The notes beneath the pieces were generated by a model. It was not told the origin of the DNA. It worked only from the letters and a program-made list of their open reading frames with translations, and ran no database searches. The translations under genes were made by a program, and so were the position numbers. This document shows, one piece after another, positions 5,175-61,567 of a stretch of 64,000 bases of DNA (its first letter is position 1; each line of letters opens with the position of its first letter). This DNA comes from a virus. Its lineage: Duplodnaviria; Caudoviricetes. The stretch is from positions 8,182 to 72,181 of the IMG/VR virus record IMGVR_UViG_3300028610_002065; one strand, given 5' to 3'.

Positions 5175-6857
5175 CTATTTTTTATTATATAAACTCAGAA
5201 CATCTACAAATCCAGCATGATCTTGAATATTCTCTTTAATTGATGCCATAATTGATTCATTAGTTAAGTCGCCTGGCCCGTCCATATTTTTAGAAAGAAT
5301 ATCTGCCATTTCCATTTGAACAGATGAAAACTCTGCTGTTCCAACTAACATTGGTGGGTCATATTTTCTTACATACATAACACATGAAGTTGCTAATGCT
5401 AAGTCGTCTCGACATCCAATATCAGCTTCAACTTTACCATTTGGTTTTGTTACTAAACCTGTTAACTCTAAAGCTAATCTTTCTGATTTAATAACTTCAG
5501 GGAACTGTGTTACATATGAATACAAGGCATCAATCATTAATGGTCTTGTTTTTGTATTGGTCGATAGACCAGGCAACCAAGTCTTTTCTCCTCTTCTTTC
5601 TTTGTAAATCATTGTAGCAAATTCACTATGATATAATTGTTCAACAACTTGGTTTCCATATGAGTTTGATTCTATTACAACTAAACCTGGATATTGAGTA
5701 GCTAATACTTTCACAACCTTAACGAAATCAAGGACTTTGCATTTGCCTTGATATTCAGCTACTTGCTCCATTGTTTCATAGTCCCAAACTGTAATTGCTG
5801 ATTTATCGTTACCATGTTCTGGAGCTGTATCGACACCCATTATATAATATCTGCCTGGTAAATTGTTTGCGAATTTCCAAATTTCTCCATTATAAATTCT
5901 TAATTTTTCAATTGGTTCTCTTGCAGAATTTTGAACTTTTTCAACTGTTTCAGGTTCAAAGAATGATCCTTCTGCCGGTAAGAATTTTAGCTCTAATTCC
6001 TGAGCAATTTTTCTCATATCATTATCAAATAGCAGACATTGAGTTTTATACCAATCTGGATCGTTGGCTAACTCTTCAATTTGTTTCCAGTGAATAACGA
6101 ATGGTTCAAAAATATCATCTCTAGATACTGCTCTTTGGTATCTTTCAAAATACCATTTACCAACACCAATGGTTTTATTTGGAGTTGATAGAACAACAGT
6201 TCCATATGGGACTTTTGCTTTTTTAGCATGCATCTGATTAGTTGATAAAGTAGGAACCATTGAAGTCCATGCTGTATCAACATGATGAATAAATGCTGCC
6301 TCATCAATAACGAGAAATGTAATCGCCTTACCACGAAGCGTTTTCTCAGGAGCATTTGGATTAACAGGTGTAGCATATACCTTACTACCGTTTGTAAGAA
6401 TAAATGATTGTTCTGTCCTTTTTGCAAATCCTCTACCAAGAGGTCCTTTTGGCGGCTTCATCCATTCTGGCAGTTTTTCAATCATTCCCCTTATTGCTCT
6501 AGCAAAGTCTGTTGCTTCTTTTCCATCTTTAGAAATAATACCAACAACTGCATTATCAAAGAAAATCGTTAACCAGGCAGAGTATGCTTGAATAATTGTT
6601 GAAATACCAATTTGTCTGCTCTTCAATACCAGGACGTATCTTCTTTCCTCAACAAGTTCAATCAATTCAATCTGTTTCTTATAAGGTTGTAAAAATACAT
6701 CTTTCCCTGGTATTTCAATCAGAATATATTTCTTACAAAAATATTCAAACGTATTTTTGCATCTGAGATATTCAGTTATAAACTCATTGGCTATAACGCC
6801 AACATCGTCTGGTATAACTTGAATCTCTTCTTCATGACTTACTGCTAATTGTTGCAT
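5175..6857 (-). CDS. terL: Terminase large subunit (T4 gp17-like)
   Basis: VLKSRQIGIST Walker A, LVIDEAAF Walker B, RNase H-like nuclease motifs GVDTA..G.DKS, VIESN, DDLALA. Confidence 0.93.
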   Translation of the reverse strand: MQQLAVSHEEEIQVIPDDVGVIANEFITEYLRCKNTFEYFCKKYILIEIPGKDVFLQPYKKQIELIELVEERRYVLVLKSRQIGISTIIQAYSAWLTIFFDNAVVGIISKDGKEATDFARAIRGMIEKLPEWMKPPKGPLGRGFAKRTEQSFILTNGSKVYATPVNPNAPEKTLRGKAITFLVIDEAAFIHHVDTAWTSMVPTLSTNQMHAKKAKVPYGTVVLSTPNKTIGVGKWYFERYQRAVSRDDIFEPFVIHWKQIEELANDPDWYKTQCLLFDNDMRKIAQELELKFLPAEGSFFEPETVEKVQNSAREPIEKLRIYNGEIWKFANNLPGRYYIMGVDTAPEHGNDKSAITVWDYETMEQVAEYQGKCKVLDFVKVVKVLATQYPGLVVIESNSYGNQVVEQLYHSEFATMIYKERRGEKTWLPGLSTNTKTRPLMIDALYSYVTQFPEVIKSERLALELTGLVTKPNGKVEADIGCRDDLALATSCVMYVRKYDPPMLVGTAEFSSVQMEMADILSKNMDGPGDLTNESIMASIKENIQDHAGFVDVLSLYNKK

Positions 6858-8571: not shown

Positions 8572-8590
8572 ATTTTAGATCCTCTTTTAT

Positions 8591-8599
8591 ATTTTGTTC
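8591..8599 (-). promoter_or_regulatory. Candidate late promoter motif GAACAAAAT
   Basis: Identical 9-mer at 61466-61474 and GAACAAAT at 6872-6879; each lies shortly upstream of a start codon in a putative late block. Confidence 0.4.
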
Positions 8600-8600
8600 C

Positions 8601-8646
8601 AAAAAAATGAGCGGGTTTGAAAGGAGCTGAAAGCACCCGCCCATTT
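8601..8646 (-). terminator. Rho-independent terminator-like hairpin with 18-nt loop and U7 tail
   Basis: Minus strand ATGGGCGGGT / ACCCGCTCAT followed by TTTTTT, between the DUF932-like gene and the late block. Confidence 0.7.
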
Positions 8647-8655
8647 AGAACCAGG

Positions 8656-13024: not shown

Positions 13025-13758
13025 ACTAATAACCTCTCGATATAGTCCCTATTTTTAATCAATTTGTTCTTATGATCTGGCATATATTCTAGTACTAGAT
13101 CACCTTCCCATTTGTATCTGTATTTTAGATCTCTAACAAATCCAACCAAATTGAATATACCGTCAGGATGATTAATTGGAAGATGTTTTCCTATCTTCCT
13201 ATCCTTCGATTGATTTGATAGATGTATTACTGAGGTGTATTTCAAGAGAGTTGTCATGATCATATAATTCATCCATATTTCTTCAATATGACTTGTATCA
13301 ATAACCATATGTACAACCGGAGGATATTTAATACACCATTCCATAATATCCAAAGGACTTCTTATCATTTTTTTATTCTTATATGGGAATGTTTCGAGAC
13401 AAAGAATTAAACCTTGCATTTCCCATCTATGCATAAATTGATATACAAAATGATCAATTCCTTTATTTGGATGAATAACGTATTTAAAACATCCAAATTC
13501 ATTAAAGCAAAATTCAATCAAATTATTTATATCTTTTGGATTTTTCCTTAAAGTATCTAGTGGGAGATGAACTACTTTAACGTGGGTATGAGTTTTGCTT
13601 ATAGTTTTTGAAATGTCTTCTTTCATTCCCATAAACAAATCATATTTATATATTGCTAATTGAATCTTTTGTGGAATATTATCCAGTGCATATCTATTAT
13701 CTTCTCCAAAACCATATGAGATTGAAACATCAATGACTGGATTACCGTTTGTATCCAT
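13021..13758 (-). CDS. TIM-barrel protein, xylose isomerase/AP endonuclease 2-like
   Basis: VHLP, VIHP, CLET, IDTSH, IHLSN, HLP, VLEY metal-ligand pattern. Confidence 0.7.
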   Translation of the reverse strand: MDTNGNPVIDVSISYGFGEDNRYALDNIPQKIQLAIYKYDLFMGMKEDISKTISKTHTHVKVVHLPLDTLRKNPKDINNLIEFCFNEFGCFKYVIHPNKGIDHFVYQFMHRWEMQGLILCLETFPYKNKKMIRSPLDIMEWCIKYPPVVHMVIDTSHIEEIWMNYMIMTTLLKYTSVIHLSNQSKDRKIGKHLPINHPDGIFNLVGFVRDLKYRYKWEGDLVLEYMPDHKNKLIKNRDYIERLLV

Positions 13759-14648
13759 TATAAGTATCTCCTTCCATTAAACCCCCCCGGTATTCCTTTC
13801 CAGTTAATTGCAATAGCCTCGGATGTATGAATAGATTCTTCATGAGTACATTTGACAATCCAATCATGTAGTTCATTTTTATCATCTAAGACTTTAGAAA
13901 TTTTTCGAATTGCATCCTCAACAAACATTGGATTTTGTGCTGCAACTCTAGCAATCTCTTGTTCATCAACCCTTTTAATGACTGGATAGGGGAGTGTGAT
14001 TAATTCGTTTTCGACAGCTTCAATAATATCTTCTAACCAAACGTAATTATTTTCCGTTACTTCGACAACGATTTCCGCAAACGATCTTTGATTATGTGGA
14101 AACCCATCGAGATCATGTTCAGATAGATCGCTGCATAGTTCTGCTGAACAAGGACAATAAGATGCATACTGAATTGTAACTCCTTGAAAGAATTTGAAAA
14201 AGTCATACTTTATTCCATCTGAGAGGTCACTGAAGTCCTCTCGATGATTCAGTTGTCCTTCAAACTTACACTTATAATAGATGGGAAATTCATTTTTTGA
14301 TAAAATTGATTTTCGCTTTATCGGCATACGAAATTCAAATTTCATGTATGTAGAATCCGTTTCAAGATTTTTCTGTAATTTTGCAAGTATCTGTTTGATT
14401 AATTTATGCTTTAGTGGTAAGTCAAGATATGGTTTTAGAGTTAACAACAATCTCGACATTGAGATCCCTTTTATCTTTTCATTTAAGCTGGTTCTCATTG
14501 ACACATTTGCATTGAGTTGATGAAAACCTCCATACTTAGATTCTAAACTAAAAGGAACCTCAACATTTTCGACTCCAACCTGCATAATGGGGATTTGGAT
14601 ATCGGGAACTGAACATTGAATATCAGGTAAACTCTCTAGCGTCATCAT
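13758..14648 (-). CDS. folE2: GTP cyclohydrolase IB (FolE2)
   Basis: MQVGV, KGISMSRL, CPCS, HNQRS, NPMFVEDAIR, EESIH motifs. Confidence 0.92.
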   Translation of the reverse strand: MMTLESLPDIQCSVPDIQIPIMQVGVENVEVPFSLESKYGGFHQLNANVSMRTSLNEKIKGISMSRLLLTLKPYLDLPLKHKLIKQILAKLQKNLETDSTYMKFEFRMPIKRKSILSKNEFPIYYKCKFEGQLNHREDFSDLSDGIKYDFFKFFQGVTIQYASYCPCSAELCSDLSEHDLDGFPHNQRSFAEIVVEVTENNYVWLEDIIEAVENELITLPYPVIKRVDEQEIARVAAQNPMFVEDAIRKISKVLDDKNELHDWIVKCTHEESIHTSEAIAINWKGIPGGFNGRRYL

Positions 14649-14908
14649 TTATTTTTTCCCCCTAATACTAATTCCTTCGGGTCAAATAGAATTAGTTCTG
14701 TCGGCATACCACCCGAAGGTTCATCTTTTTCATCTTTTAGATTTTCCTCTGTTTTTCTTAAATGTGAAAGTGGACTAAGCGGATCACCCTTAGTTATACC
14801 CAATTTTCTTTTTTTTCTTTTAATAGAATGATCACGAAGAGTATCATTATAGAAATAGTCCATAGTAGAGGAAGTAGATGTTGAAGTTTCCCAACTAAAA
14901 GAACTCAT
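14645..14908 (-). CDS. Hypothetical protein
   Basis: 87 aa, ATGA overlaps on both sides. Confidence 0.55.
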   Translation of the reverse strand: MSSFSWETSTSTSSTMDYFYNDTLRDHSIKRKKRKLGITKGDPLSPLSHLRKTEENLKDEKDEPSGGMPTELILFDPKELVLGGKNK

Positions 14909-17904
14909 TTGTGATTAACCCCTATAACAGTTAGATAAGAGTTTAACAATTTTACTGATTCAGGTACCGTATTTAAATCTTTTGAATCTTCAATTAAATT
15001 TGATTCAATGAAGTTTCGTATATAGCTATTCTTTAAATCAATACAATCGGATTTGGTTGTCAAAAATTCAAATAGATTATGTGGAGCATCATGCCCAATT
15101 AGACATGCTGTTTCCATTTCGCCACATCTTTGACCGCCTTTGTTCTTCCGACCTCCGAGGGGTTGTAGAGTTCGTCTTGCATATGCTCCGATACCTCTGG
15201 CTGCTAATTTCTCTTCAGCAATATGAACCATTCTAAAGAAATAGATATATCCGACTGCAATTTCATTTTCTAATTTAACTTGAGATAAAGGATCAAAAAG
15301 CTCTGTTGTAAATGTTGCACCTGTGTAATCCATTGCTTTTTGTAGATCCTCTAATTTACAAGACTCGAACGGAGATTGAATAATTGTAAAGTCTTCTATA
15401 AACTCTTTGGTTATAATTTTTGGTAATGACTTTTCTAATTGGTCATAATACCATCCACCATCTGTCTTGTCAATAATTTTTATGAAATTTAAAAAGTATT
15501 TTTTAACTTCATCCTGATTGACTACCAGTTTTAGCATGTTGGTTTTCAATGCTTGAAGCGCAAATGCTAGATGCATTTCGTAGAGTTGACCAAAGTTCAT
15601 TCGGGAAATGATACCTAATGGATTTATACAAATGTCAAGATGTCTTCCATCGGGAAGCTGTGGCATTTTTTCATGAGGAACAATTCGAGAAATTACTCCT
15701 TTATTCCCATGCCTATTTGCAATCTTATCACCAACCTTAACTTTTCTAAAATGAACTCCAGCTATTTCTATTCTTACTCCATTAATTCTTTCACGTTTGC
15801 TTTTGTATTTACCGACAAACGAAAATTTATCAAGACCTCTATCTTTGATAAACTTTGCTGCCTTATCTTTTGATAAATGCCTTTTCATCACTTTTTGTAA
15901 ATCATTTTCTACATCTGATTGTTCTTGTAATTTTTTCTCTATCCATTCTTTATATTCCGGTACCTCTTCATTCCATTCGTTTGCATATATGTTAACTTCG
16001 GATATGATGAAGGTTTTTCTAGCAATCAATTCAATTGGTTCTGAAAATACTGAATAGAACTCATCTGAATTTAACTTCTTTAAAATTGCATATGGATTGC
16101 CTGCGTTAACAACGTCCAATACTTCTGGAAGTGGATCATATATGTCACCTTTTAATGAAAGTAGAACTTTATCCGGAGTTAATGAAAAGGATAAATCTTT
16201 GAAATGAACTGATGTTAGACTATCATCATTTACTAATCTGTCAGATATTACAATTCCATCTTCATAATTGTTGCCATAATAGATCATAACACCAGTTAAT
16301 AAATTTCGACCGATGTTGATTTTGCCATCTTTACAGAAGTTGCTTTCAGCTAAAACATCTCCTGTTTTAAATTTGTCTCCAGGTTTTACATAGATATTCA
16401 TAAAGTCAAGATGCTCAACATAAATTTTTCGATAACTAATATCAAAGATATCTGGTTCGCCATCTGTATATGCAACAATAATATAGTTTCGGTCTATAAA
16501 AATGACTTCGCCATCTTTCTTTGCTTGTTTAACAAATTGGGTATGTTGAGTAAACAACCCTTCACAACCTGAACTAATAAGCGGAACATCAAACTCTTTT
16601 AACATAATGGCCTGACGCATCTGTGATGATGCCATTTGTAATCTTGTCTGATCATCATGTTTTAAAAATGGAGTCATAGATACCGGAATAGAAATGGGTT
16701 GCTTCTCTGTAATCTCATCTGTGAACTTTAAATTTTCATCCAGAAAAACATTCGGAACAAGATTTTGTAATACTCCACAATTATCTCTATCAGGTGTATC
16801 AACTGGACAAATACGACCAAACATAGTTGGAGAGATGTCTCTTAAATGTTTTGGAATATTTTCTCTTTTGAATCCACCTGGTCCTAATAGGCTAGATCTG
16901 GAAAGTTTTGTTAATTCTTCAATTGGATTAATAGAAAAATCAAACTGAACAATATCAGATACATTACACTCTGATAAAATTTGAGTTGAATTGATATTGA
17001 ACTTTGGTTGTCTAGCTGTCCTATTTGAGAAGCATAAATCAAAAATGATCTTAGAGATTTTTGATACAACCATATATTCAAAACATCTTATCCTTTTATT
17101 AGTAAAAATAGTGTCGTCAATGGTTCTAATTTTTAAAGTTTCAATCAGTTCATCTAAAATCGAATTGGTTTCCAAAAACCTTGCTGTTAAAACATCAACT
17201 TTTGGGATAAGATCGAGAGCGTATAGAATATCTTCACCTTTTGACTTTTGATTGAAACGAGAATACGTTCGTCCTATTTCAACAATGAAATCATCTTGTG
17301 TATGTCCTATTGATTCATCATAATATGCTTTCAAATCTGCTCTTAGTGTTTCATATAGAAATCCTCTTGGATCTCTTAGATCAATCGTTTCATCAAGAAA
17401 GAAATCTTCATGAACTTTTTCTTTTCCATGGAACCCAAATAGAAGTAATGATAAGGGCACTTTTCTTCCCATAAAACTAACTTGAAGTCGAGGTATCTCT
17501 TTTTCTAAAGTCACAACTATTGTAGCGACATTAGTTCGGAGTTTAATACTTTCACCTCTCGTTACGACAGGTATATCAAACAATTGAAATAAAGGAATCT
17601 TTTTTCTGCCGTTTATGAATATATAATTTTCATCTATTAACTTTGGAATGTATATAGACAAGTCAATATTTGACTGCCCTTTTTGGAGTTTTATTGACAA
17701 GGTTTGTTTGAGAGTTCTTGACAATTCCCCCGATGAAAATCTCGACTCCTTTAAGTCGACTTCAAGGATTTGAAAACCAATCTCTTCGACTGGTTGTACA
17801 ATTTCTCTTACCAACGGTAAAATCTTTTCATAGTCTCTTTTTCGGATTGTGAAGATATTGTTTTCTTCACTCTGAATTTTGAATGTTGGGTTTATTATTT
17901 TCAA
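14905..17904 (-). CDS. rpoB: Multisubunit RNA polymerase beta-like subunit, set 1 (probable non-virion RNAP)
   Basis: GRICPVDTPD, HDDQTRLQMASSQMRQA, YNYEDGIV-like, GDKIANRHGNKGVI, GGQRCGEME; 999 aa, unsplit. Confidence 0.93.
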   Translation of the reverse strand: MKIINPTFKIQSEENNIFTIRKRDYEKILPLVREIVQPVEEIGFQILEVDLKESRFSSGELSRTLKQTLSIKLQKGQSNIDLSIYIPKLIDENYIFINGRKKIPLFQLFDIPVVTRGESIKLRTNVATIVVTLEKEIPRLQVSFMGRKVPLSLLLFGFHGKEKVHEDFFLDETIDLRDPRGFLYETLRADLKAYYDESIGHTQDDFIVEIGRTYSRFNQKSKGEDILYALDLIPKVDVLTARFLETNSILDELIETLKIRTIDDTIFTNKRIRCFEYMVVSKISKIIFDLCFSNRTARQPKFNINSTQILSECNVSDIVQFDFSINPIEELTKLSRSSLLGPGGFKRENIPKHLRDISPTMFGRICPVDTPDRDNCGVLQNLVPNVFLDENLKFTDEITEKQPISIPVSMTPFLKHDDQTRLQMASSQMRQAIMLKEFDVPLISSGCEGLFTQHTQFVKQAKKDGEVIFIDRNYIIVAYTDGEPDIFDISYRKIYVEHLDFMNIYVKPGDKFKTGDVLAESNFCKDGKINIGRNLLTGVMIYYGNNYEDGIVISDRLVNDDSLTSVHFKDLSFSLTPDKVLLSLKGDIYDPLPEVLDVVNAGNPYAILKKLNSDEFYSVFSEPIELIARKTFIISEVNIYANEWNEEVPEYKEWIEKKLQEQSDVENDLQKVMKRHLSKDKAAKFIKDRGLDKFSFVGKYKSKRERINGVRIEIAGVHFRKVKVGDKIANRHGNKGVISRIVPHEKMPQLPDGRHLDICINPLGIISRMNFGQLYEMHLAFALQALKTNMLKLVVNQDEVKKYFLNFIKIIDKTDGGWYYDQLEKSLPKIITKEFIEDFTIIQSPFESCKLEDLQKAMDYTGATFTTELFDPLSQVKLENEIAVGYIYFFRMVHIAEEKLAARGIGAYARRTLQPLGGRKNKGGQRCGEMETACLIGHDAPHNLFEFLTTKSDCIDLKNSYIRNFIESNLIEDSKDLNTVPESVKLLNSYLTVIGVNHK

Positions 17905-18085
17905 TATTGGTAGCCTCCAAGTAGTGATCTCTTATAAATTCAATTAGGTCTTTATCTTCCATATAGTACAGCTTATAATGCGGTATTGCATTTTCTATTA
18001 ATTGCCCCAAGCGGAGATCTGGAAATGAACCCCAAATGGTTTTTAATTCATTCAGGACTTCTGGAATTCTTTTGGGATCTCTCAT
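17867..18085 (-). CDS. Small conserved phage protein (DUF1040/YihD-like)
   Basis: MRDPKRI..VL..L..IW...PDLRLGQLI pattern. Confidence 0.6.
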   Translation of the reverse strand: MRDPKRIPEVLNELKTIWGSFPDLRLGQLIENAIPHYKLYYMEDKDLIEFIRDHYLEATNIENNKPNIQNSE

Positions 18086-18309
18086 TCTTTTGATTTCCTT
18101 TTAAACTTATAAAAGATTGAACCCATAACTCCCTCTTCAACTATAAATGATTTAACTTCATCTATAGTTTTTGCATCTTTGGGAAACACTTCAATAATAC
18201 ATTCCGCCATATTTGATAAATCCTCAGTTTTACTTTGGATCCATTCATTGTTTAAATCACCAAGGAATATATTAGTGAGAATTTTAGTTTCTAGTTCCTC
18301 AGAAGTCAT
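18082..18309 (-). CDS. Hypothetical protein
   Basis: 75 aa, ATGA overlaps. Confidence 0.55.
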   Translation of the reverse strand: MTSEELETKILTNIFLGDLNNEWIQSKTEDLSNMAECIIEVFPKDAKTIDEVKSFIVEEGVMGSIFYKFKRKSKE

Positions 18310-20966
18310 GTTATTCTTTCTCCCTTTAAGATTTTATCCATCACTCCGGAATATTTACCTTCGTATAATATTCCTTGAAGGATTGATCTTTTTGGATTTG
18401 AAAACGCCATAGCTAGAATCCAACTCTCTTGGTTTGGAGCAGATTGGATGCTATAATAATCTGGAGTAATTTTATCTCGGTTCTTTAACAGTCTCCACTT
18501 CCAATGGTTTTTCCACATGAGTTGAGCGACAACACATTCAAAGTGAACGTGATATATATCTTTATCATAAACATCGAACAATTCAGCAACTATATCAATG
18601 TATGTTTTTCTTTTAAATTTGTGTAGCAGTTCGGAAATAGATGCAAGATCTCCAATAATATCTTCTTGTTTCATTGAAGCATTATCTTCTTCTCCCTTTA
18701 TCATTGCTGAACCAGATGTATGAAATGTTCTTAAAACTAACTGGGTTCCTCTCTCACCAAGAGTTTGTGCTGCAATAATTCCAACGAATCTGCTATTTAA
18801 CTTTTTGTATAAATCACCATAACATCGACAACATACTTTTGGACTTTTACAAAGAATTGGACTTCGAATCATTATTTCTTTTCCAATTATATCTTTGAAG
18901 TTATCTTTAGTGATTTTGTATAAGGTTTTCTCATCTTCAGAAAGAGCGAATTTATTTATGAGCATTCTTGCTTTTCTTTCTGAAGTAACATCAACTGGTA
19001 ATAAATCAGTTGTGCCACAATCTTCTAATCCTTCATCAATTTGAAGATTGGCACATGTAAAAATTAATTTTCGTGAAAGATATCCTGAGGTGCCTGTGTT
19101 TAGTGCTATATCAAGTAATCCTTTTCTACAACCGTATGTTGAATAGAAAAACTCCTCTTGATTCAATCCTTCTAATAATGAATTTTTGATCGGATGTGGT
19201 AATATATGTCCATCAAAATTAGAGATGAATCCTCTTGAAAGAACTAACTGTCGAACTTGATCCCAGCTTCCTCTAGCTCCTGATTCAATCATATAAGAAT
19301 AAGAGAAATTTTTTCTCAGCATATTTGTAACTTCTGGGTTGGATAAAGATAATAATTGTTTTCTAGTTCCATCTTCAGAAAATATTTTTTCTTTGAGTTC
19401 AGTGATTCCATCTATACTGCACTCATTTAAAGATAATGTGCATCCTGATAAAGTTGCATACTTAAACCCCATCTTCTTAATATTATCTAAAATAATTGCC
19501 ACATCAGAATCCTTGTAAGCATCTTTAATTTCATTAAGAATTTCCAACAATTTCTTGTTGTCGATTGTTTCATTTACATCTGGATAATCATGTGGTAAAT
19601 AATTATTAAACTCTTCTCTTCCCCAATCAAATGATGTTGCATAATATATTCCTAGAATCACATCCTGACTTGGAATTGTTGTTAAACTCTCATTTGCAGG
19701 ACTATTTAGATTCTTTGTAACAAATATTTTTTCTCTTATCTCCTCTTTAGCTTCTTCAGTAATTGGTATATATACTGCCATTTGATCCCCATCAAAGTCT
19801 GCATTAAATGGTGGACATACTAAAGGATGAATCTTTATTACTTGATCTAATGTTACTTTAATATTAAAACCAAGCATCCCTAGTCTATGTAAAGATGGTT
19901 GCCTATTTAAGATGCAAACTTCATCCTTTGTTAGATCTTCACAGACCTTAAATAATACGGGAGATTGACTATCAATGCATTCATCAACAAAATCTATTGC
20001 TTTATTTAGGAGTTTGAATTTTCCTATTTCTATAATTCTTTTAGCAATAGGTAATTTGAAAATCTCAAGAACCATCAGATAAGGCAGTTTACATTGATCT
20101 AATCTAAGAGTTGGGTCTGGTGTAATAACAGCTCTACCGGAAAAATCAATTCTTTTTCCTAAAATGTTTCCTCTGATTAATCCTTCTTTTTTTGCCATTT
20201 TCTCAAGGATTCGATTATATAGTTCACTTATATCATTTTGTAATTGTTTGAAATAAGTGTAGTAAAGATTTTTATCTATCTGGATATTTATGATCGTATC
20301 TTTCATTGTCTCTTTCTTAGTGAGTATTTGAATATAATATCTATTGATTTTATCCATAAGATCTTTACCACTACCAGAACTTTTTGAAGTCGGTCTTAAG
20401 TCAGGTGGCAATACAATAATTTGGTTGATGATAAGACTGTCAAGATTGTCTTTAACTATTTGCCATTCTTTAATTCCTTCTGTAATCATATCAGCCGCCA
20501 AAGTTTCAACTAGAACATGAATGGCTTCAATTCGTTCCCATGTGTTAACTCCAGTTGGGATGCTTTCAGAATCAAGAGTTACAACCATCTCATTGTCAAT
20601 TAAATATAGAATGCTCTTATCATTTTTCATTAAATCATCAAGAGCACTCTTTAAACTACGACCACCTAGATCTACTAAGAGATCATAAAATATTGGATTG
20701 ACAACCGGAAGGGGTAATACAATTTTTGCGAATCTTTTTCTTCGCTCATCACTGTTTACAATATCAACTTTGCAATCATCGCATGTACCTCCGGATTTTG
20801 ATACTCCATGATATATACCACATTGGCATGTGTAATTTCTGACTGGCCCAAAGATTTGCTCTGAAAATAAACCTTTTGAGTGAAACTTCTTTTTTCCGAA
20901 TGTTTTTAAAGAGGTTACTTCCTCTAATGGTTCACAAAATTTATGATAATCTAAAATCTTTGGCAT
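18306..20966 (-). CDS. rpoC: Multisubunit RNA polymerase beta'-like subunit, set 1
   Basis: GLFSEQIFGP, CQCG..C.DC zinc finger, VLPPDLRP, LGKRIDFSGRAVI, NRQPSLH, catalytic FNADFDGD, TGTSGYLSRKL, TQLVLRTFHTSG; 886 aa. Confidence 0.95.
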   Translation of the reverse strand: MPKILDYHKFCEPLEEVTSLKTFGKKKFHSKGLFSEQIFGPVRNYTCQCGIYHGVSKSGGTCDDCKVDIVNSDERRKRFAKIVLPLPVVNPIFYDLLVDLGGRSLKSALDDLMKNDKSILYLIDNEMVVTLDSESIPTGVNTWERIEAIHVLVETLAADMITEGIKEWQIVKDNLDSLIINQIIVLPPDLRPTSKSSGSGKDLMDKINRYYIQILTKKETMKDTIINIQIDKNLYYTYFKQLQNDISELYNRILEKMAKKEGLIRGNILGKRIDFSGRAVITPDPTLRLDQCKLPYLMVLEIFKLPIAKRIIEIGKFKLLNKAIDFVDECIDSQSPVLFKVCEDLTKDEVCILNRQPSLHRLGMLGFNIKVTLDQVIKIHPLVCPPFNADFDGDQMAVYIPITEEAKEEIREKIFVTKNLNSPANESLTTIPSQDVILGIYYATSFDWGREEFNNYLPHDYPDVNETIDNKKLLEILNEIKDAYKDSDVAIILDNIKKMGFKYATLSGCTLSLNECSIDGITELKEKIFSEDGTRKQLLSLSNPEVTNMLRKNFSYSYMIESGARGSWDQVRQLVLSRGFISNFDGHILPHPIKNSLLEGLNQEEFFYSTYGCRKGLLDIALNTGTSGYLSRKLIFTCANLQIDEGLEDCGTTDLLPVDVTSERKARMLINKFALSEDEKTLYKITKDNFKDIIGKEIMIRSPILCKSPKVCCRCYGDLYKKLNSRFVGIIAAQTLGERGTQLVLRTFHTSGSAMIKGEEDNASMKQEDIIGDLASISELLHKFKRKTYIDIVAELFDVYDKDIYHVHFECVVAQLMWKNHWKWRLLKNRDKITPDYYSIQSAPNQESWILAMAFSNPKRSILQGILYEGKYSGVMDKILKGERIT

Positions 20967-29168: not shown

Positions 29169-29498
29169 TCATTGTGTTGGTTTTGCCCAGAATCTTCTAC
29201 CTCTTCGAGTTTCTAAATAATCAACCCTATCAAATGGGACTGATCTCCATCCAAGTTTCTCAAGATCATAAACATGCATAATCTTATTAACCTGAATCAA
29301 CTTTAATATTTTTTCAATATTAACTGATTTTGGATGATCCTCTTCTGGAATTTTTGTGAAGTCAAGAGTGCAACGCATGATTCTGTCCCGATTATCTTTT
29401 GTTACAAACTTTATTCTTACATCTTTTTCATCATAAATCTTTTTCCAAAATTGAACTGCGCTGACTATAATGTCAGAATCAATATCTCCACTAGCCAT
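29169..29498 (-). CDS. WYL_2/DUF2693-like SH3-fold protein
   Basis: VRIKFVTKD..DRIMRCTLD...VYDLEKLGWRSV pattern. Confidence 0.7.
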   Translation of the reverse strand: MASGDIDSDIIVSAVQFWKKIYDEKDVRIKFVTKDNRDRIMRCTLDFTKIPEEDHPKSVNIEKILKLIQVNKIMHVYDLEKLGWRSVPFDRVDYLETRRGRRFWAKPTQ

Positions 29499-30540
29499 GA
29501 GTATATCCCTCCCGTTTATCGAGATGTACTAAATCTTCTGGTCCTGTATCATTATCATTTATATACTTACTCATTAAATGACAAGTATGATTACATAACT
29601 TGCAGTACTCTTTTTTATCTCTTTTGATTGCAGCTTCTGCTATAAAATTTATACTACCAGCAGTCATAATCAAATTTTCAAGAGTTACTATTGATGGAGT
29701 ATGGACTCCTCTGATTCTTAAGCAAAGTCTAATTGAACCATCTGCATCAATTGAGATATTATGGAGGTCTTTATCAATTTCACAATTCATGTTTGATGGG
29801 AGTTTATCCCACATAGCTGGTATGAGTAATTTTTTCATATGAACATCTAAACTATCATCCTTCATAATTTTTTTAAATTGATCTGCTAGTTGTGCTGTTT
29901 GATGTACCAGAAGATTAAAATCTGTCATATTTGAAAAATCGTAATATGGAGTTTTCGCTATGTCAATAAAAGTGACATCTGCATTTATTTCATACTTACT
30001 TAGCTCTTTTAATAGATCATAAAGATATATGTAGTTATGTTTCATTGCAGTTATCTCGGCAACTACATCATCTACATATGCCTTTAGGTTAATTAAATTT
30101 TCTAAACCATGAATACTTTTTCGAACTCTGTCCTCTCCAGATTCTTTTTCATCATGGAACACTGGATCGACTGAAGCGGTGAACCCTTTTATTCGACCAT
30201 TAACTTTATCAAAAAGATTTTTAATTAATGGTCGAATCTCCTTTGTATTGTTGGAGATTATTGTATAGTGAATGTCTTCTCTATTACAATGATTGATAAT
30301 CTCATAAAGGTCTTTTCTTAATAAGGGTTCTCCGCCGTAGAATATATGAAACATATCCGGATTATGTAGTTTTAATTTATTCAAACCTTTGATAATATAT
30401 TTAGTTGACATTTCATTATTGTGATAATGTTTCATATCCGGATATTCTTCGGGTTTGTTTGGATAGTTTTTCACGATTGCACAATAATCACATTTGAGAT
30501 TACATCGTCTTGTCAACAACCAGTTTGCTATTCTAATCAT
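29491..30540 (-). CDS. Radical SAM protein
   Basis: CNLKCDYC, YGGEPLLR, ISN, C-terminal Cys cluster (CLRIR...CKLCNHTCH). Confidence 0.9.
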   Translation of the reverse strand: MIRIANWLLTRRCNLKCDYCAIVKNYPNKPEEYPDMKHYHNNEMSTKYIIKGLNKLKLHNPDMFHIFYGGEPLLRKDLYEIINHCNREDIHYTIISNNTKEIRPLIKNLFDKVNGRIKGFTASVDPVFHDEKESGEDRVRKSIHGLENLINLKAYVDDVVAEITAMKHNYIYLYDLLKELSKYEINADVTFIDIAKTPYYDFSNMTDFNLLVHQTAQLADQFKKIMKDDSLDVHMKKLLIPAMWDKLPSNMNCEIDKDLHNISIDADGSIRLCLRIRGVHTPSIVTLENLIMTAGSINFIAEAAIKRDKKEYCKLCNHTCHLMSKYINDNDTGPEDLVHLDKREGYTHG

Positions 30541-35963: not shown

Positions 35964-36336
35964 ATTGTTCCATTCTTGTTACAAATTCTTTTACTTCAAT
36001 CAACTTAGTTGGAGATATTGTAGTTGCTCCTTCGCCATCAACATCAATAATTTTAAAGATTAGATTATCACTTTTTAAAAGTTCACGAATAAAAAGAAGT
36101 TCATATCCGTATGGCCCAAGCATAATTTCTTTACCATCTTTAAGAAGATTAATATCTTTTTTTATTTCATCTATCAATTTGTTTATCTCATCTGAAGATG
36201 GTTCTTCGTCATGAATATAATCTTTATACTGTTCGGTTTTGATGATTTTATTTTTTTCGATTTTATAATTTGATGGAATAAAAACTATAAAAGAAGCAGA
36301 TGAACTGTTTGTTACAAAGTCTGTTTTGATTTTCAT
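35932..36336 (-). CDS. MKIKxDFVTNSS-motif protein 6
   Basis: Starts MKIKTDFVTNSSSASF. Confidence 0.75.
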   Translation of the reverse strand: MKIKTDFVTNSSSASFIVFIPSNYKIEKNKIIKTEQYKDYIHDEEPSSDEINKLIDEIKKDINLLKDGKEIMLGPYGYELLFIRELLKSDNLIFKIIDVDGEGATTISPTKLIEVKEFVTRMEQYENQNRLCNQ

Positions 36337-37739
36337 TTTCCCCCCAATATTTCCATTGCGACTTCACGATCAATGGGATTCAATTTACCATCTTTGAAAA
36401 ATAGATATTGAATTGGCCATTCTTTTTTATCATAAAATTTCTGGCGAGGGTAAAATGTTCGTGATATGTCTGGACATCCATAGTCTACCATATCAATTAT
36501 AATTGGAGTTTTCTTTCCTTCTACTTCCCTTAGAATTCTTCCAGTTAATTGCTCAAGATTTCTAATTGGGGAAGTCATAATAACACAATCTTTCCAAGGA
36601 GCATCAATTCCATCTCTAACTTTACCTGGTGTTGCAAATGTGACTTTAAAGTCTAGTTGTTCTAGTTTAGGACCTGTACCACAGAATAAACCTTTACTTT
36701 CATGTTTTGTCTCTTTAAACAATTCATCAATTAATTTAATTCTTTCTGCTACACAGATCATATGACGATCCTTTTTTAAACGACCCAACAACCCCCTCAT
36801 TGCTTCCCTGAAGGGTTTTGACTTCTTTATCATATTGAGATATCTGGAACGCTGAAACTCACCTCCCCAATGCACATACCTGTAGCTCCGGGGTGTATCA
36901 ATTTGATAATCCAATAGGACAACTGTTACTTTGCCATCCATTGTTCCTTCAAGATCATCGTCTGAAAATATATCTCCAAGATGAAAACGAATTATATCTC
37001 CATTTCCATCATACCTATCTGGAGTTGCACTTAAACCATATGTATATTTTGCTGGAATATGAATTGAACATTCTGATAATCTTGGAGCTCCGATTGATGT
37101 ATGAACTTCATCTGCGACCAATACACCCACATCTGCATTATTTAAATGAGTTAAAAACTCTTCGGGTTTCCGCTTCAACAATGATCTGAATGTTTGGACC
37201 ATGGCAATGATTATTGGTTTTTTAAAATCATCTTCAAATGTATTAGAAGTTAATCTTGCAATATCATCTATTTTCAGATCTGTAAATTGTAAGAATCGTT
37301 CTTCCCATTGCTTTGCTAATGAATCTCGATGTACTAGAATCATTGACTTGCGTTTTCGTTTAGCAATCATATATATTGAAATGACTGTTTTACCAACGCC
37401 AGGTGATAACTTTAAAATTCCGTTGGGATATTTTAACAAGTATTTGATTGCTTTTTTCTGTGCATCACTTCTAGGAGTTATATTGTGATTGATCTCTATC
37501 GGAGCTCCTTCATGCTGATGATTGACAACCTTATAATGAAATGTATATTGTTGAATCGGGAAGTATCTTGGAATTAAAAGATACTTCTCCGACTCAATAT
37601 AAAATCTATTTATTATAAAGTTTGATTTATCATATGCAGTTGTCCGACGCTCTAAGAACTCCTTTATTTTAATGTAATATTCTTTATGCTGATCTTTCTT
37701 TGAAATTAGAAGACCAGAGCGTTGGATTATATTTAACAT
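36333..37739 (-). CDS. Superfamily 2 helicase (UvsW/XPB-like)
   Basis: SPGVGKT, ADEVH, GLSATP.RYDG, QLTGRILR. Confidence 0.9.
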   Translation of the reverse strand: MLNIIQRSGLLISKKDQHKEYYIKIKEFLERRTTAYDKSNFIINRFYIESEKYLLIPRYFPIQQYTFHYKVVNHQHEGAPIEINHNITPRSDAQKKAIKYLLKYPNGILKLSPGVGKTVISIYMIAKRKRKSMILVHRDSLAKQWEERFLQFTDLKIDDIARLTSNTFEDDFKKPIIIAMVQTFRSLLKRKPEEFLTHLNNADVGVLVADEVHTSIGAPRLSECSIHIPAKYTYGLSATPDRYDGNGDIIRFHLGDIFSDDDLEGTMDGKVTVVLLDYQIDTPRSYRYVHWGGEFQRSRYLNMIKKSKPFREAMRGLLGRLKKDRHMICVAERIKLIDELFKETKHESKGLFCGTGPKLEQLDFKVTFATPGKVRDGIDAPWKDCVIMTSPIRNLEQLTGRILREVEGKKTPIIIDMVDYGCPDISRTFYPRQKFYDKKEWPIQYLFFKDGKLNPIDREVAMEILGGK

Positions 37740-48587: not shown

Positions 48588-48794
48588 TTAATTTTCATCT
48601 TTAATCTCATATTTATCTCTGAGCTTTTTTGGTACCTTTATCCTACATAAGTTAGCAACTCGAATGAGCATTTCAGGAGTCGTATTTCTGAGAAATTCCT
48701 CGATCCTTCTCCTTAGCTTACGCATCATTAATTCATTCTGCTCAGTCATGAAAGTCTCCTCAAAGCACAAGGGAGAGATAGACAGGAGTTTCAT
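48588..48794 (-). CDS. Hypothetical protein
   Basis: Short basic protein, likely start MTEQ. Confidence 0.45.
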   Translation of the reverse strand: MKLLSISPLCFEETFMTEQNELMMRKLRRRIEEFLRNTTPEMLIRVANLCRIKVPKKLRDKYEIKDEN

Positions 48795-49722
48795 CTTCTT
48801 GTATCATATCTCCCCCACCACCTGAATCTGTTCGGAGAAGATTAGTTTTTAAAGACCCAGTTTGTCCCAACTCTTGTGAACTAATTTGAATGTCTTTCAA
48901 TAAAGGAAGAATCTCAGTTTGAATATGGTCTGAAAATTCGCTTAATATTTTTTCGACTTCATCAGGATCAGCTTCCTTTGGGAATTTTGGCAGGACCAGC
49001 GCTGATGGACGAATTTTTCCTAACATTTTTAAACGAATCATCTCTGCTCCATAGCATCCACGAATCAGATATTTCCAATATGCTTCCCAATGTTGAGGAG
49101 ATGGCATAATTTCAACACCAACCGGAACTCCAGCAAACATGATTATAGCACCAATCTGATTTTCGACTGGTTCGAAAGCTGCTGCAAAGTTTTCAAGAGA
49201 TTTCTTGATTGATGGTTCATCATAAAAGTCTCTGATGTGAGCTCGACTGGTACTTCCTGGGACAATACCCCTTAACCAGATGCTGATTCTATCCCATATT
49301 TTATCGTATTTTCTTCTCGATCTGATGGTTGGATCAAGCAATGCCTTTCTCAATTCAATTGGCAGAATATCTTCATCATTATCACTTTCACGAAGAAGAC
49401 CACCTTGACTTGATTCAACACAGCAGGCATTATCAAACTGGGACTGACTGCGGCTGGCAACAACACCAGAACCTGACATTGCATGATCTTGTGCACTTTT
49501 TCCACGAACCATATAGTTGGCCGGAACAATAGCTGGACGGGATTGATCCTTATTTTCAAATACCATTGTTCCATAACCTGCAGTTCGGGAGAAAGTTAAG
49601 TTTTCAGGATCAGCGATATCTCCTCTCGAAGGACCAACAATTGGAACAACTGTCATTTCATCCTCTGATTGAATTGGACCAACCCCAAGATTTGAAAATC
49701 CTAACGTTTCAAAAATCGACAT
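48760..49722 (-). CDS. ARPP-1/DUF6569-like protein
   Basis: LGVGPIQ...MTVVPI, AQDHA...ACCVESSQG, Q.GAIIMFAG..VGVEI; adjacent to a TROVE-like gene as is typical of the family. Confidence 0.6.
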   Translation of the reverse strand: MSIFETLGFSNLGVGPIQSEDEMTVVPIVGPSRGDIADPENLTFSRTAGYGTMVFENKDQSRPAIVPANYMVRGKSAQDHAMSGSGVVASRSQSQFDNACCVESSQGGLLRESDNDEDILPIELRKALLDPTIRSRRKYDKIWDRISIWLRGIVPGSTSRAHIRDFYDEPSIKKSLENFAAAFEPVENQIGAIIMFAGVPVGVEIMPSPQHWEAYWKYLIRGCYGAEMIRLKMLGKIRPSALVLPKFPKEADPDEVEKILSEFSDHIQTEILPLLKDIQISSQELGQTGSLKTNLLRTDSGGGGDMIQEDETPVYLSLVL

Positions 49723-52259: not shown

Positions 52260-52276
52260 AATTAATATATATAGAA
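52260..52276 (-). promoter_or_regulatory. Candidate early promoter, 17-bp exact repeat TTCTATATATATTAATT
   Basis: Identical to 63658-63674; both copies are intergenic and head a block of non-structural genes. Confidence 0.45.
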
Positions 52277-53873: not shown

Positions 53874-56800
53874 TTATCTCTCCAACATTAATGAAACAAA
53901 ATATGAATTTAATAAATCTCGACCTGGAGATACCTTTGGTTCTTTGTATTCAGCTTCTCCTTTTTGAATAATCTCTGCTAAAATTTCTTCTCTTGTTATA
54001 TAATCATCTGATAATGGTCCCATAAACTCTGCTAATACATGAGGTGCATTATAAGAGATGAATGAATAGGTATCGAGTTCTCCTAATCTTTGACCACCCT
54101 CACGCCTTTTGCCAGAAGTAGGTTGTCCTGTTTTTCCAGTTACAGGTCCAGTACTTCTGCCATAAATTTTTTCTGCTCCAAGATGTTCAAGTTTTGAAAT
54201 ATACATGTAACCACAAGGAACTTCTCTTAATGTTTTTGTATTGTATTCAGGCAACGTTAATCTATATCCTGATTTTAACCCCAATGATTTCAAAGCATTT
54301 TCGATATGTTTGTTATTTGGTGCTTGAAATGGTGGAATGATTATTGGATAAAATCCAGTTTTCTTAACTTGCTCAACTAACTTTTTAAATTGTATAGGTG
54401 GTAATCTATTCAGACCCGCTACTAATATGCCTGTATTTCGTCTGTTCGGTGAAGTATCAAGTTGAGAATATATCCTTTTGATTAAATCAATTATCTTCGT
54501 TTTAGTGGTCATTGTAACAATCAGTCTACCCATTTCTTTTGAAATTAATCCTGTATATAACTCATACATTTGACTAATGTTCATTCTGTTTAGAACACCA
54601 ATTGGATTTAATACTACTTCAATGATATCTCCATTTGGCATTCTCGGCATCATATTATCTGGTTCTACCAATGATATAATTCCTTTGTTTCCATAACGAC
54701 CAGCAAGTTTATCACCAACACCAACTCTTAACTCCTGTTCAACTTTAAATTTAATTAAAACTCCTTTTATTGTTTCACCTTTAAAAGAGAACTTTTCTCT
54801 TGGAATTTTTCCGTGTCTTTTAGCTGTTCTATCAGCATGATCTTTTATTTTTGGAAATTTACTTGGTGCAACATTTGAGTAAACTTGAATATCAACTATT
54901 TTTCCACCTGGACTTTTCTTTACAAATTGACCGGCAAATAAATCAGTTGATTCATCCTCTTCGAAACCAATGATTTCTTCTACATCTCCCATTGTTTTTC
55001 TAAGCAGAGGTTGTCCTTTTTCAATGTACTGACCTATTTCTCCTATGAACATAATTCTATCATTTTCTGATACTAAAACTTCTTCTTCAATACCATGTAG
55101 AGATGTTAATTTATCTTGATCAGACACACTTTGACTAATAACAATTCCATCTTCAAAATTATATCCTTTGTATGGCATCATTGCGACTAATAATGGACGA
55201 CCCAATGAGATGGTACCATCAGACATACAAGCACCTTCAGCAATAACTTTTCCTTTTTTAACTACATCTCCCGCTTTAACAATAGGAGTAAAAACACTAA
55301 GAGTATTTTTTCCAGATCCTGATTTTAAATGTGCTGGTGTAATATCAATTGCTTGACTTTTATTTCCACACTTTACATATATTGCATGTTCAGTTATTCT
55401 GGTAATCTTTCCATCACACGGAGATTTCTTAACAAAACTATTTGATAACACTCCAGTTAATATTGATTCATAACCTGATTGAACTGGAGGACTTTGAGGA
55501 TTCTTTAGTGGTAATGATTGTTTAGCTTGATTAGTTGCCATAATAACTCTAGCACCATCTGTGTTTTCAATGAATGGAATCATTGCAGATGTAGTTGATA
55601 ACATTCCACTACCTTCATTGTTACTTATAACTTTTTCAGCAAATAATCCTCTTGAAGATGATACCATTGCATCGACTGTTAGTTGTTGAATCAGTCCAAT
55701 GTTTTCACTCTCTGGTGTGTCAAGAGGATCTATATTACCAAAGTATGTTGGATGTAAATTTCTTGCTGCTTGAGAGATTGCTCTTTTATCAGGAATACCT
55801 CCAACCTTCTTTCCAACTGGAGATGTTCTTGTCATAGTTGCCATTTCTTCTATTGGATTTGCATATTCCATATTAACAACTAATTCTGTCATTAAGAAAT
55901 CACTTAATACTTTTGTTGGAGAAATGACGAACTCTGCTTCTTCGTTACCCGACAAAACCTGCGCTTTATATGTCGTGTAAGCAGCAAGAATTTGTTTTTG
56001 TGCTAAATGAACTAAGACTTCTGAATTTCTTATTCTTAAATTACTAAGATCATTTCGTTCAATAACATATCCTTCAACAACTTTAGCTGCCATATATTGC
56101 ATGACTTTTTCTAATTCAAATGGTAGTTGCTTATTTTTTAGAACTTGATTTACAACAGGATCAATAACATTCTTTACTTGTTGTCCTATTTGAAATGTTG
56201 AATTGATTCTTCCTGTATGCTCAATAATCCACTTCTCAAAAAAATCTTTTGTTCCAAAATCTGAAGTTGTTTTAAATCTTTCAATTTTAGCATGTAAGAA
56301 TGATTGACACATTTGCCTTTTTAATTCAGTATCAGCATTGGTGAATACAATGAATCTTCCATCGGGTATCTTGCTTACAAACTCTTGACCTTTTGGTTTT
56401 GTCTCTGTAAGTTCATATTTAATTTTATATCTTTTAAGGGTTTCATCAAATCCAAATGCATATGATAATAGAAAGATTAGAGGCATTTTATAAGTCATGA
56501 ATCCTTCAAGATACTTTTCACGACGAAGGTGTTTGGAGTAAATTCTAAATACTGAATATGAACTTTCAAATCTAGACTCACCTGGTTTTGGGAATGTTAT
56601 TGGGCATTGTGTTAATTGATTAATAAGGCATTTCTTTTGACCATATAGATTGAATGTTCCAGTGTTAGGATCAATTCTTGGAAGTTCTATTGAAATATTA
56701 TGAGTATTTCCAAACTCATCTTTAAGCGTAATTTTAGCAATATTGATATCTGATTTCATTAACTCACCAGACCTTTGAGGTTTTGGAGTTAAATTTATTT

Positions 56801-60900: not shown

Positions 60901-60969
60901 AAACATTTCTGCAGATGTGACTGGCTTCAAACCTCTTTTAAATTTGTTAAGGTCTAAGAATTCTATCAC
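57955..60969 (-). CDS. rpoC: Multisubunit RNA polymerase beta'-like subunit, set 2
   Basis: GLFSESIFG, VIPPDQRP, LGKRTDFSGRAVV, FNADFDGD, TASTGYMSRQL, TQTIMRTFHTGG; no N-terminal Cys4 zinc finger. Confidence 0.95.
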   Translation of the reverse strand: MIEFLDLNKFKRGLKPVTSAEMFSKPGEYHSDGLFSESIFGPEESVDRKKTFSFIKLNSRVIHPTAYGLLIKLDMKIQEFLSSQETFSVDSRGTLVRDPDGITGISEFIKIFPKIKFRGGTTDRENFIIKIKQAFSENTLVIEDIPVIPPDQRPAYQDQKGMWVIDPLNDYYTVLLRKSVQMKGASKAGPLFDLLNYELQKSVLEHDKFVRKLIQKKRGLIRSQLLGKRTDFSGRAVVTPGPQLKVNEIGMPLRLAVKLFEPFILHRIFNYNKPALEKLGKEIKSFIKLELSIDSIRAVFKAIHSGDKIPKALFDIIFEITEVAMKGRVVLAKRDPVLQPESVRPFVPILITGNTVQLCTLQVGGFNADFDGDTMAIYHPITNESQEEVIKKMLKSESSDNAHSVNFSFTKEMLVGLYGMTKNIKKTSSPIAVSKEDLAKASDPYIPVRYKGRNTTMGKAIFNDAFPTGWPFYNNVVTSKYINGTIPIVLEKYGQKQTIETFSHLERLGFKFATILAPSFTLDDVELPSEILQIKKQIKGTSTQEADVLIKKSEKMLEKHMRGTGLHDLQESGSAKGWGNTRQILVAKGIVADPSGKVLDPIDASFAEGMSNKDYFKQAAGARRGIIDRVLNTASTGYMSRQLAYVANSVEVDRMLKDCKTKRTLDQRLTSMLIDRIDGRYIIKNGKLIEFNKNDHKVGDVINLRSPIFCESKKLCHTCYGKLLERHKSPYVGIISAQLIGEAGTQTIMRTFHTGGAVDIISKDITGDIIQNDPMVVKSTVTKNLYQQENNLVVKNDCTITIAIGDYPNPGDLKVNQEKTYLSAKGLVCRIEFPDSMFSIILDYPVEIPIYQMEQIGKEFYKLHFKKNSTLLETSLEHEDMKEQVLYTQRLLSGREIFKDANHLFTKLFRVYGPLRNFDTVHLEVLISQVLRDKSNLAIPARLGRRWNPVLINMKQTVFKTSFVQGLAFENINESIRTGLITDEPEEPSVLERVLTGTLVETEK

Positions 60970-61464
60970 TTATGCACTTTCTCCTGTTTTGCTAAGAACT
61001 AGATATTTTCTAATATTTTTAAACATATTTGTTATTTTAGCTTTCCTAGCAGCTGCTGATGCAGGTTTAGGAACATTTTTAACAAATGTATTATGTTTAT
61101 GATTTAATCTGTTTAACATTCCTTGAATATCGTTTACATCAAATCTGCCATCGCTTGTCAGTTTTTCTGCCATCTTAATTGATAAATGAATGACCTTCGG
61201 ATCTTCCATTCCATATCTGTTACAAACTGGAAATAAGTATGCAGAAGTATCTCTACCAATCGGATTTAACTTCATGAAACAGGCAGGTTTCATTCCATAA
61301 AGCCGATCTCGCATATCTTTTTTAAGAAGATACCCTATGCTTTGATCTGGGTTTATCAACTCATTTGCTCTTCTGATTAATTCAGAAAGGTTTTCTAATT
61401 CTTCTTGTATAAAATTATCTCTCATTGTCCTCCCTCCAGCGCTGAGGTTATAGCAAACTATCAT
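60970..61464 (-). CDS. Hypothetical protein (start may be MRDNF)
   Basis: GGAGG RBS before the internal Met; first gene of the block. Confidence 0.6.
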   Translation of the reverse strand: MIVCYNLSAGGRTMRDNFIQEELENLSELIRRANELINPDQSIGYLLKKDMRDRLYGMKPACFMKLNPIGRDTSAYLFPVCNRYGMEDPKVIHLSIKMAEKLTSDGRFDVNDIQGMLNRLNHKHNTFVKNVPKPASAAARKAKITNMFKNIRKYLVLSKTGESA

Positions 61465-61490
61465 TATTTTGTTCTAAAAATGACTTTAGC

Positions 61491-61567
61491 AAAAAAATGG
61501 AGCGGGAAAGTTAATGCTCCTTTGGTGATCTAGAATATCCTCAAGAACCTTTCCCGCACATTTTTTT
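61491..61567 (-). terminator. Large-loop terminator-like hairpin with U7 tail
   Basis: GCGGGAAAG/CTTTCCCGC stem flanked by A7 and T7; 3' end CCCGCTCCATTTTTTT resembles that of the 8601-8646 hairpin. Confidence 0.65.

Follow-up and report, generated by a model that had tools for sequence, protein, structure and literature searches.

Two undivided multisubunit RNA polymerases in a metagenomic tailed phage, one of them best read as a counterpart of the virion RNA polymerase of phiKZ/AR9-type phages

The viral record IMGVR_UViG_3300028610_002065 (Duplodnaviria; Caudoviricetes) encodes, within the 64,000-nucleotide stretch analysed here (positions 8,182 to 72,181 of the record, hereafter the window), two pairs of genes for subunits beta' and beta in a multisubunit RNA polymerase (RNAP), which we call set 1 and set 2. 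On the strength of sequence comparisons, set 2 is best interpreted as an undivided equivalent of the phiKZ/AR9-type virion RNAP. We consider it rather probable that the window comes from a phage of the multimeric-RNAP-encoding Caudovirales (mReC) with two intact cores of whole subunits that lack alpha, omega and sigma, of which set 2 would be a virion-type enzyme, packaged and acting early, and set 1 an enzyme of middle and late infection.

Every long open reading frame (ORF) of the window is located on the minus strand, and base composition is even throughout, at ~33% G+C. In set 1, the beta' gene (18306-20966, minus strand) encodes 886 amino acids (aa), with an N-terminal CxC...CxxC zinc ribbon and the catalytic stretch NADFDGDQMAV, and the beta gene (14905-17904, minus strand, TTG start) encodes 999 aa with the motif GDKIANRHGNKG. 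In set 2, the beta' gene (57955-60969, minus strand, GTG start) encodes 1004 aa, without the N-terminal zinc ribbon and with the stretch NADFDGDTMAI; the beta gene (53874-57953, minus strand) begins one base after the beta' gene ends and encodes 1359 aa, including the motif GDKLAGRYGNKG. All four genes are unsplit. Pfam identified Rpb1 domains in both beta' subunits and Rpb2 domains 3, 6 and 7 in both beta subunits, well above cut-off, and the motifs NADFDGD (beta') and GDK..R(H/Y)GNKG (beta) are intact in both sets, which bears out the first-pass annotation of this DNA in its claim of two complete, unsplit beta/beta' pairs with intact NADFDGD. The span given there (14905-20966) covers set 1 and leaves set 2 outside, and it overlooked two small ORFs that lie between the set 1 genes. 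The two sets share ~27-30% identity, and in both of them the gene order, beta' then beta, is the reverse of that of bacterial rpoBC. Residues 16-991 of set 1 beta are collinear with residues 350-1352 of set 2 beta, and therefore set 2 beta can be described as a full core preceded by an N-terminal extension of ~345 aa. The annotation had also seen no alpha or omega subunit in the window. This holds beyond it: domains of alpha (PF01193), omega (PF01192) and sigma70 region 2 (PF04542) were found in none of five large relatives, one of which is complete, and the control genomes were positive.

The homology of set 2 to virion-type subunits is specific. PHROG families were named by scanning the genes of phage SPN3US, so that phrog_2986 corresponds to gp240 (the virion beta', N-terminal portion), phrog_3148 to gp241 (the virion beta, 1401 aa) and phrog_2926 to gp244 (matched at 1.2e-94), a 240-aa virion structural protein that has been detected in particles (PMC7598289). 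Set 2 beta' (P0004) matches phrog_2986 at 5.8e-39, and set 2 beta (P0003) matches phrog_3148 at 3e-43. The C-terminal module of set 2 beta' (residues ~780-1004) falls into the gp244 family, matching phrog_2926 at 4.3e-6, and the same match was obtained for five of nine relatives. Comparison with AR9, the record of which labels subunits as virion or non-virion, gave a corresponding result, in that the genes matching set 2 are those of virion RNAP subunits: the N-terminal portion of virion beta' (gp144) is matched by set 2 beta' at 2.3e-28 and by set 1 at 2.7e-5, and the exons of the virion beta (gp188) favour set 2 beta.

In order to compare the groups, we built hidden Markov models (HMMs) from 15-17 sequences each of set 1, set 2 and bacterial subunits, and scored six virion-type beta' N-terminal subunits, three of them named by annotation and three assigned by homology (from phiKZ, 201phi2-1, SPN3US, AR9, Staphylococcus phage SA1 and Fusobacterium phage JD-Fnp4). 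These subunits scored 99-222 bits with the set 2 HMM, compared with 15-56 bits with the set 1 HMM and less than 32 bits with the bacterial HMM. Every set 2 sequence and every virion-type beta' N-terminal subunit has the same gap of ~28 residues, which removes the N-terminal zinc ribbon. Bacteria, set 1 and the non-virion subunits of phiKZ-type phages have the ribbon (CxC...CxxC); the AR9-type non-virion subunit does not.

The beta subunits behave similarly. Four gp178-like beta proteins scored higher with the set 2 profile than with the set 1 profile (148.7 versus 108 bits, 110.6 versus none, 70.6 versus 43, and 33 versus none). The structure predicted for the N-terminal extension of set 2 beta had a predicted local distance difference test (pLDDT) value of 82.7, and only two of its fold matches among predicted viral structures were significant: one, at E 2.4e-5, to a protein of 1393 aa, the other, at E 7.5e-5, to a protein of Bacillus phage PBS1 that has 921 aa. 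Both would be virion RNAP beta proteins, judging from their lengths and hosts. The beta'-then-beta order is common to set 2, SPN3US gp240-gp241 and phiKZ. Within the same genomes, set 2 has the higher rate of evolution (51-64% identity, versus 57-73% for set 1), and by sequence the solved structures nearest to it are those of bacterial RNAPs rather than that of AR9 (7S00).

Several observations weigh against the reading of set 2 as a virion-type enzyme within a phiKZ/AR9-like pair. The link of the C-terminal module to gp244 was obtained at the level of PHROG HMMs only (E ~1e-6), a tblastn search of cultured phages with the set 2 beta' C-terminus and an hhalign comparison with SPN3US gp244 both being negative. 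The trees, which we computed for the N-terminal part of beta' (64 rows, LG+C20) and for beta residues 490-1148, with approximately unbiased (AU) tests of four groupings, are equivocal. For beta', every group forms one clade and set 1 stands with bacteria (support 85); the best tree unites set 2 with the virion-type subunits, yet the support is only 74, a joint clade of the two sets is not rejected (p-AU 0.41, 0.215), and the AU test rejects none of the four groupings. For beta, a quick LG+C20 tree joined the virion and non-virion types and placed set 1 with bacteria (support 73). Under the same model, a tree constrained to unite set 2 with the virion type was better by 26.6 log-likelihood units, while fast searches under LG+F+G4 marginally reject that grouping (p 0.04) as well as the grouping of set 1 with set 2 (p 0.045). 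A phylogeny had been suggested at the first pass as a check: it favours set 2 plus virion type in the beta' and LG+C20 beta trees, and the support of 74 and the LG+F+G4 result keep it from settling the matter. We regard the branching order of the two sets and the phiKZ/AR9 types as undecided, the trees being either model-dependent or non-significant. Because of this, and because long branches dominate the trees, we base the case for set 2 on the profiles and on the deletion and modules that it shares with the virion type.

Set 1 is only weakly linked to the non-virion RNAP, as the set 1 and set 2 profiles give the non-virion beta' N-terminal subunits much the same scores, which also counts against a full correspondence with the phiKZ/AR9 pair. 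The idea of a phiKZ/AR9-like two-enzyme strategy with unsplit subunits, put forward at the first pass, therefore fits set 2 well (profiles, zinc-ribbon deletion, modules and gene order) and set 1 less well. An alternative is that the two enzymes stem from two acquisitions rather than from a single duplication, set 2 being an old enzyme of jumbo-phage type and set 1 having been gained independently from a source that was bacterial or proto-bacterial, in which case set 1 would not be an orthologue of the non-virion RNAP. The position of set 1 with bacteria in both trees speaks for it, as do the active-site stretch of set 1 (VCPPFNADFDGDQMAV), which is near the bacterial one, its retained zinc ribbon, the lack of a set 1 preference among the non-virion beta' N-terminal subunits and the marginal rejection of a joint clade of the two sets in the LG+F+G4 beta test. 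The closest solved structures of set 1 by sequence are, as for set 2, bacterial RNAPs and not 7S00. However, set 1 beta' is 28-32% identical to bacterial beta' in every phylum, so that there is no signal of a donor. Moreover, non-virion beta subunits prefer set 1 over set 2 (110 versus 67 bits and 29.7 versus 22; AR9 gp104 matches set 1 only), the non-virion C-terminal parts score higher with the set 1 than with the bacterial profile, and the published analysis of mReC enzymes recovered one mReC clade, separate from cells (PMC7481178). On balance we consider two acquisitions of this kind somewhat unlikely. The first-pass suggestion that both enzymes were acquired separately from those of phiKZ and AR9 appears unlikely as well, since set 2 and the virion RNAP have several specific features in common. 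According to a 2026 review, it is not known if jumbo phages came by their virion and non-virion RNAPs through duplication or through two acquisitions.

The undivided condition of set 2 is the state of the genome in the window and is not fixed in the lineage, which is a further point against regarding it as a defining character. Among the 44 relatives' loci surveyed, nine have beta' cut at about residue 775-780, giving pieces of ~782 aa and 230-240 aa; the relative G006 has such a cut too, and over all ten relatives the cuts fall at about residue 775-796. In the phiKZ-type enzyme this site marks the gp244 boundary. In four of the 44 loci it is beta that is cut, near residue 300, 462 or 865, and a large protein database contains many N-terminal pieces of set 2 beta' of 505-510 aa on long contigs. 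Since relatives split set 2 at several sites, and Fusobacterium phage JD-Fnp4 has a mixed arrangement, lack of splitting cannot be taken as a fixed trait of the group. The genes of set 1 are more uniform, beta' being unsplit in all 80 of the relatives' loci and beta in 79 of 80. Taken together with the homologies above, a possible history is that the divergence between the virion-type and the second RNAP predates the split of the mReC, with their T4-type capsid, from the phiKZ/AR9-type phages, that the whole-subunit form is the older one, as in the ancestral state suggested at the first pass, and that the five-piece virion enzyme arose by repeated gene splitting, which would still be under way in mReC, including at the gp244 boundary. 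We offer this tentatively and put its probability slightly below even.

Other arrangements were also seen. In one locus (L247, 3213-7914) set 2 beta' is interrupted by ~1 kb at the region of the catalytic motif, and in another (L235, 781-4914) it has an in-frame insert of ~255 aa; an intron, a homing endonuclease or an intein may account for these. Seven IMG/VR loci (L255, L256, L258, L262, L264, L273 and L284) have a single ORF of ~2100-2480 aa in which beta is followed by beta' in one fused protein; these are 26-30% identical to set 2 and nearer to the bacterial profile, and represent a different class of viral RNAP. The cultured Rhizobium phage RHph_TM30 (L095; NC_070966, 208 kb) has a whole beta' of 1127 aa with NADFDGD, and a search of its genome with either beta query gave no beta homologue.

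What the two enzymes do can be proposed from these relationships. Set 2 would be made late, packed into the capsid and injected, and would transcribe the early genes; set 1 would be made after infection and would transcribe the middle and late genes, probably with a specificity factor. What the sequences show directly is that the genes are intact, that both sets are present in one genome and that set 2 is specifically homologous to virion-type subunits. Packaging, timing and promoter classes we infer, the first two from homology alone, and this is a reason for caution about the roles proposed. The other possibility is that neither enzyme is packaged, that the two are produced only once infection has begun and share out transcription by time or by gene class, and that the host polymerase reads the early genes. 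T4-type phages use the host RNAP. The structural module of the mReC is T4-like (gp23-type capsid, PMC7481178; baseplate and terminase), and set 2 has no structural genes as neighbours in the window, both of which fit an enzyme that is not packaged. The window has no capsid gene, and its structural-type genes with matches amount to the large terminase; a gene for a baseplate wedge protein was seen in one relative. Nor could the labels 'replication block' and 'late block', attached at the first pass to the surroundings of set 1 and set 2 respectively, be upheld: set 1 lies beside a ubiquitin-like cluster, a FolE2 gene and the terminase gene, and the neighbours of set 2 in the window match no Pfam or PHROG family. 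Against an arrangement in which neither enzyme is packaged, set 2 has the hallmarks of the virion type, including a module of the SPN3US structural protein family that is found in particles, and no sigma factor or other obvious modifier of the host RNAP was found. We therefore judge this alternative unlikely, and retain the reading of set 2 as a packaged, early enzyme of virion type.

A factor like gp68/gp226 of phiKZ and AR9, which might be expected to accompany set 1, was not demonstrated in either of two candidate ORFs, and this tells against the scheme, as does the outcome of a search of the window for two classes of promoters, which found none. By its position, the candidate for a specificity (sigma-like) factor is a 480-aa ORF upstream of the set 2 operon (61566-63008, minus strand); it has 573 homologues of uniform length, with 61-94% identity among the best 120 listed, and no match in Pfam or PHROG, or in PDB by sequence or by profile, nor did the Atlas offer a lead. 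The other ORF encodes an all-helical protein of 372 aa, located at the end of the baseplate genes in a relative (G003; L333:6578-7693, plus strand) and just outside the start of the window in the phage itself. It is conserved (326 homologues) and its AlphaFold2 model has a pLDDT of 83, and it gave no convincing sign of likeness to gp68/gp226: there was no match in PDB, PHROG or a Foldseek search of PDB, and the best VIA Z of 6.4 was to unrelated helical chains.

There is almost no intergenic space in the window. A 164-aa ORF with no family match (60970-61464, minus strand) abuts the start of set 2 beta', and a hairpin followed by a T-run is located just upstream of it. Two intergenic stretches, 8572-8655 and 61465-61565 (minus strand), each contain a hairpin that is rich in G+C and has a T-run, and after it T-run-(A/G)GAACAAAATA. 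Although it follows both terminator-like hairpins, GAACAAAATA is not enriched across the window. The consensus of the AR9 early promoters (AAATATATATTAT) has 15 one-mismatch matches window-wide, compared with 6.4 expected, most of them inside genes. Intergenic AT-rich words close to AAATATATATTAT occur at 52262-52272 and 63660-63670 (minus strand), upstream of a small-RNA array and of a PrsW-like gene. Scans of the window for sigma70-type promoters and terminators gave results at chance level.

A chimeric metagenomic assembly joining sets from two different phages, raised at the first pass as an alternative, is refuted by the co-occurrence of the two sets on 19 IMG/VR contigs, which are independent, come from many samples, carry both sets in the same orientation and include a complete genome, and by the even base composition of the window, so that we give it practically no credence. 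Relatives of set 1 beta' in IMG/VR number 301 (55-85% identity). For set 2, an initial pattern scan of IMG/VR found nothing, and an alignment-based scan with set 2 beta' recovered ~45 relatives (36-65% identity). Both sets are present on all six of the contigs of at least 140 kb that were searched, one of which is the complete 277-kb genome with terminal repeats; the spacing between the sets is 33-38 kb on five of the six and ~48 kb on one contig of 143 kb. Since no GTDB genome supplied a copy among the best 80 loci, the phage cannot be assigned to a host.

The lineage to which this phage belongs has been described. Weinheimer & Aylward 2020 (Nat Commun 11:4506, PMC7481178) reported 97 metagenomic Caudovirales contigs, for which they coined the name mReC, with unsplit beta and beta' subunits of at least 800 aa containing NADxDGD and with capsid genes of the T4 gp23 type (PF07068 / VOG11186). 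The subunits in the window (886/999 aa and 1004/1359 aa) lie within this size limit and carry the motif, and they are 52-73% identical to those of two relatives, G002 (WOR52_10000459, 277,131 bp) and G005 (Ga0180432_10000070, 149,482 bp), that are included in the tables of that paper; judged by these sequences, the phage belongs to the published mReC lineage. The Supplementary Dataset of the same paper lists for Ga0180432_10000070 an 'a' pair of 1367+1005 aa and a 'b' pair of 1014+900 aa. Its text used the genes as a phylogenetic marker and does not discuss two enzymes per genome, virions or splitting; according to the review of Sokolova et al. 2020 (PMC7598289), mReC were analysed without the phiKZ-type enzymes, and for one mReC-type genome a second RNAP beta fragment was pointed out in a paper of 2023. 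Thus the lineage, the unsplit genes and, in a supplementary table, both pairs are already in print, and the link between set 2 and the virion type is absent from that paper.

The two small ORFs between set 1 beta' and beta (18082-18309, 75 aa, and 17867-18085, 72 aa, both minus strand) have no PHROG match. The homologous beta genes of relatives encode 998-1069 aa and lie directly downstream of beta'; as the gap between the two genes varies from 0 to ~1000 nucleotides across the relatives' loci, the small ORFs are unlikely to encode core subunits. Directly downstream of set 1 beta is a gene for a FolE2-type GTP cyclohydrolase I (13758-14648, minus strand; Pfam 8.7e-63), and the other neighbours of set 1 are the ubiquitin-like cluster and the large terminase gene (5175-6857). 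A radical-SAM gene is located at 29491-30540, and together with FolE2 it may belong to a base-modification pathway of the deazaguanine type. The stretch separating the two sets encodes Rad50/Mre11-like proteins, topoisomerase II, a methylase and a helicase. The helicase, of superfamily 2 (ResIII/SNF2-like; 36333-37739, minus strand), is positioned between both polymerase sets; Iyer and colleagues reportedly noted in 2021 that the occurrence of a Rad25-like helicase tracks RNAP genes in jumbo phages. Genes for an ARPP-1 domain protein and for a homologue of the PrsW family of intramembrane proteases are found at 48760-49722 and 63114-63656 (minus strand), respectively.

The value of these enzymes is limited by the fact that the lineage and the genes have already been published, and lies in three uses. 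The mReC enzymes offer less diverged sequences for rooting the question of duplication versus two acquisitions, and set 2 provides a natural series of split intermediates. Virion-type RNAP had not yet been purified as of the 2020 review (PMC7598289), and set 2 would be a simpler, two-subunit target for expressing and solving such an enzyme.

Compared with known systems, set 1 is similar to the non-virion RNAPs of phiKZ (gp55, gp71-73, gp74, gp123 and gp68; PDB 7OGP) and AR9 (PDB 7S00/7S01) in lacking alpha, omega and sigma, and gp55 of the phiKZ type keeps the beta' zinc ribbon, as set 1 does. The non-virion enzymes consist of four core pieces and a fifth subunit (gp68/gp226), whereas set 1 consists of two whole subunits; furthermore, the solved AR9 enzyme 7S00 is more distant from set 1 than bacterial RNAPs are, and in the trees set 1 is nearer to bacteria.

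For set 2 the relevant system is the virion RNAP (phiKZ gp180/gp178/gp80, SPN3US gp240/gp241/gp244 and AR9 gp144/gp188/gp263; PMC7598289), with which it has in common the family of the beta' N-terminal part, the missing zinc ribbon, a large N-terminally extended beta, a gp244-type C-terminal module and the beta'-then-beta order. The RNAPs of phiKZ/AR9 and of the group to which the window phage belongs are alike in being without alpha, omega and sigma. The virion RNAP is made of at least five polypeptides and set 2 of two, with identities of 22-33% over parts; phiKZ-like phages have morphogenesis genes of the phiKZ type, in contrast to those of T4 type in the window phage. Between these arrangements stands the cultured Fusobacterium phage JD-Fnp4 (ON464764), which resembles set 2 in having an unsplit virion-type beta' of 930 aa that is without the zinc ribbon and scores 222 bits with the set 2 profile, and in having a gp178-like beta of 1488 aa. 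It differs in that the genes do not lie side by side and that the second beta', which is non-virion-like, comes in two pieces of 482 and 648 aa. JD-Fnp4 is thus an intermediate state, short of the fully unsplit one.

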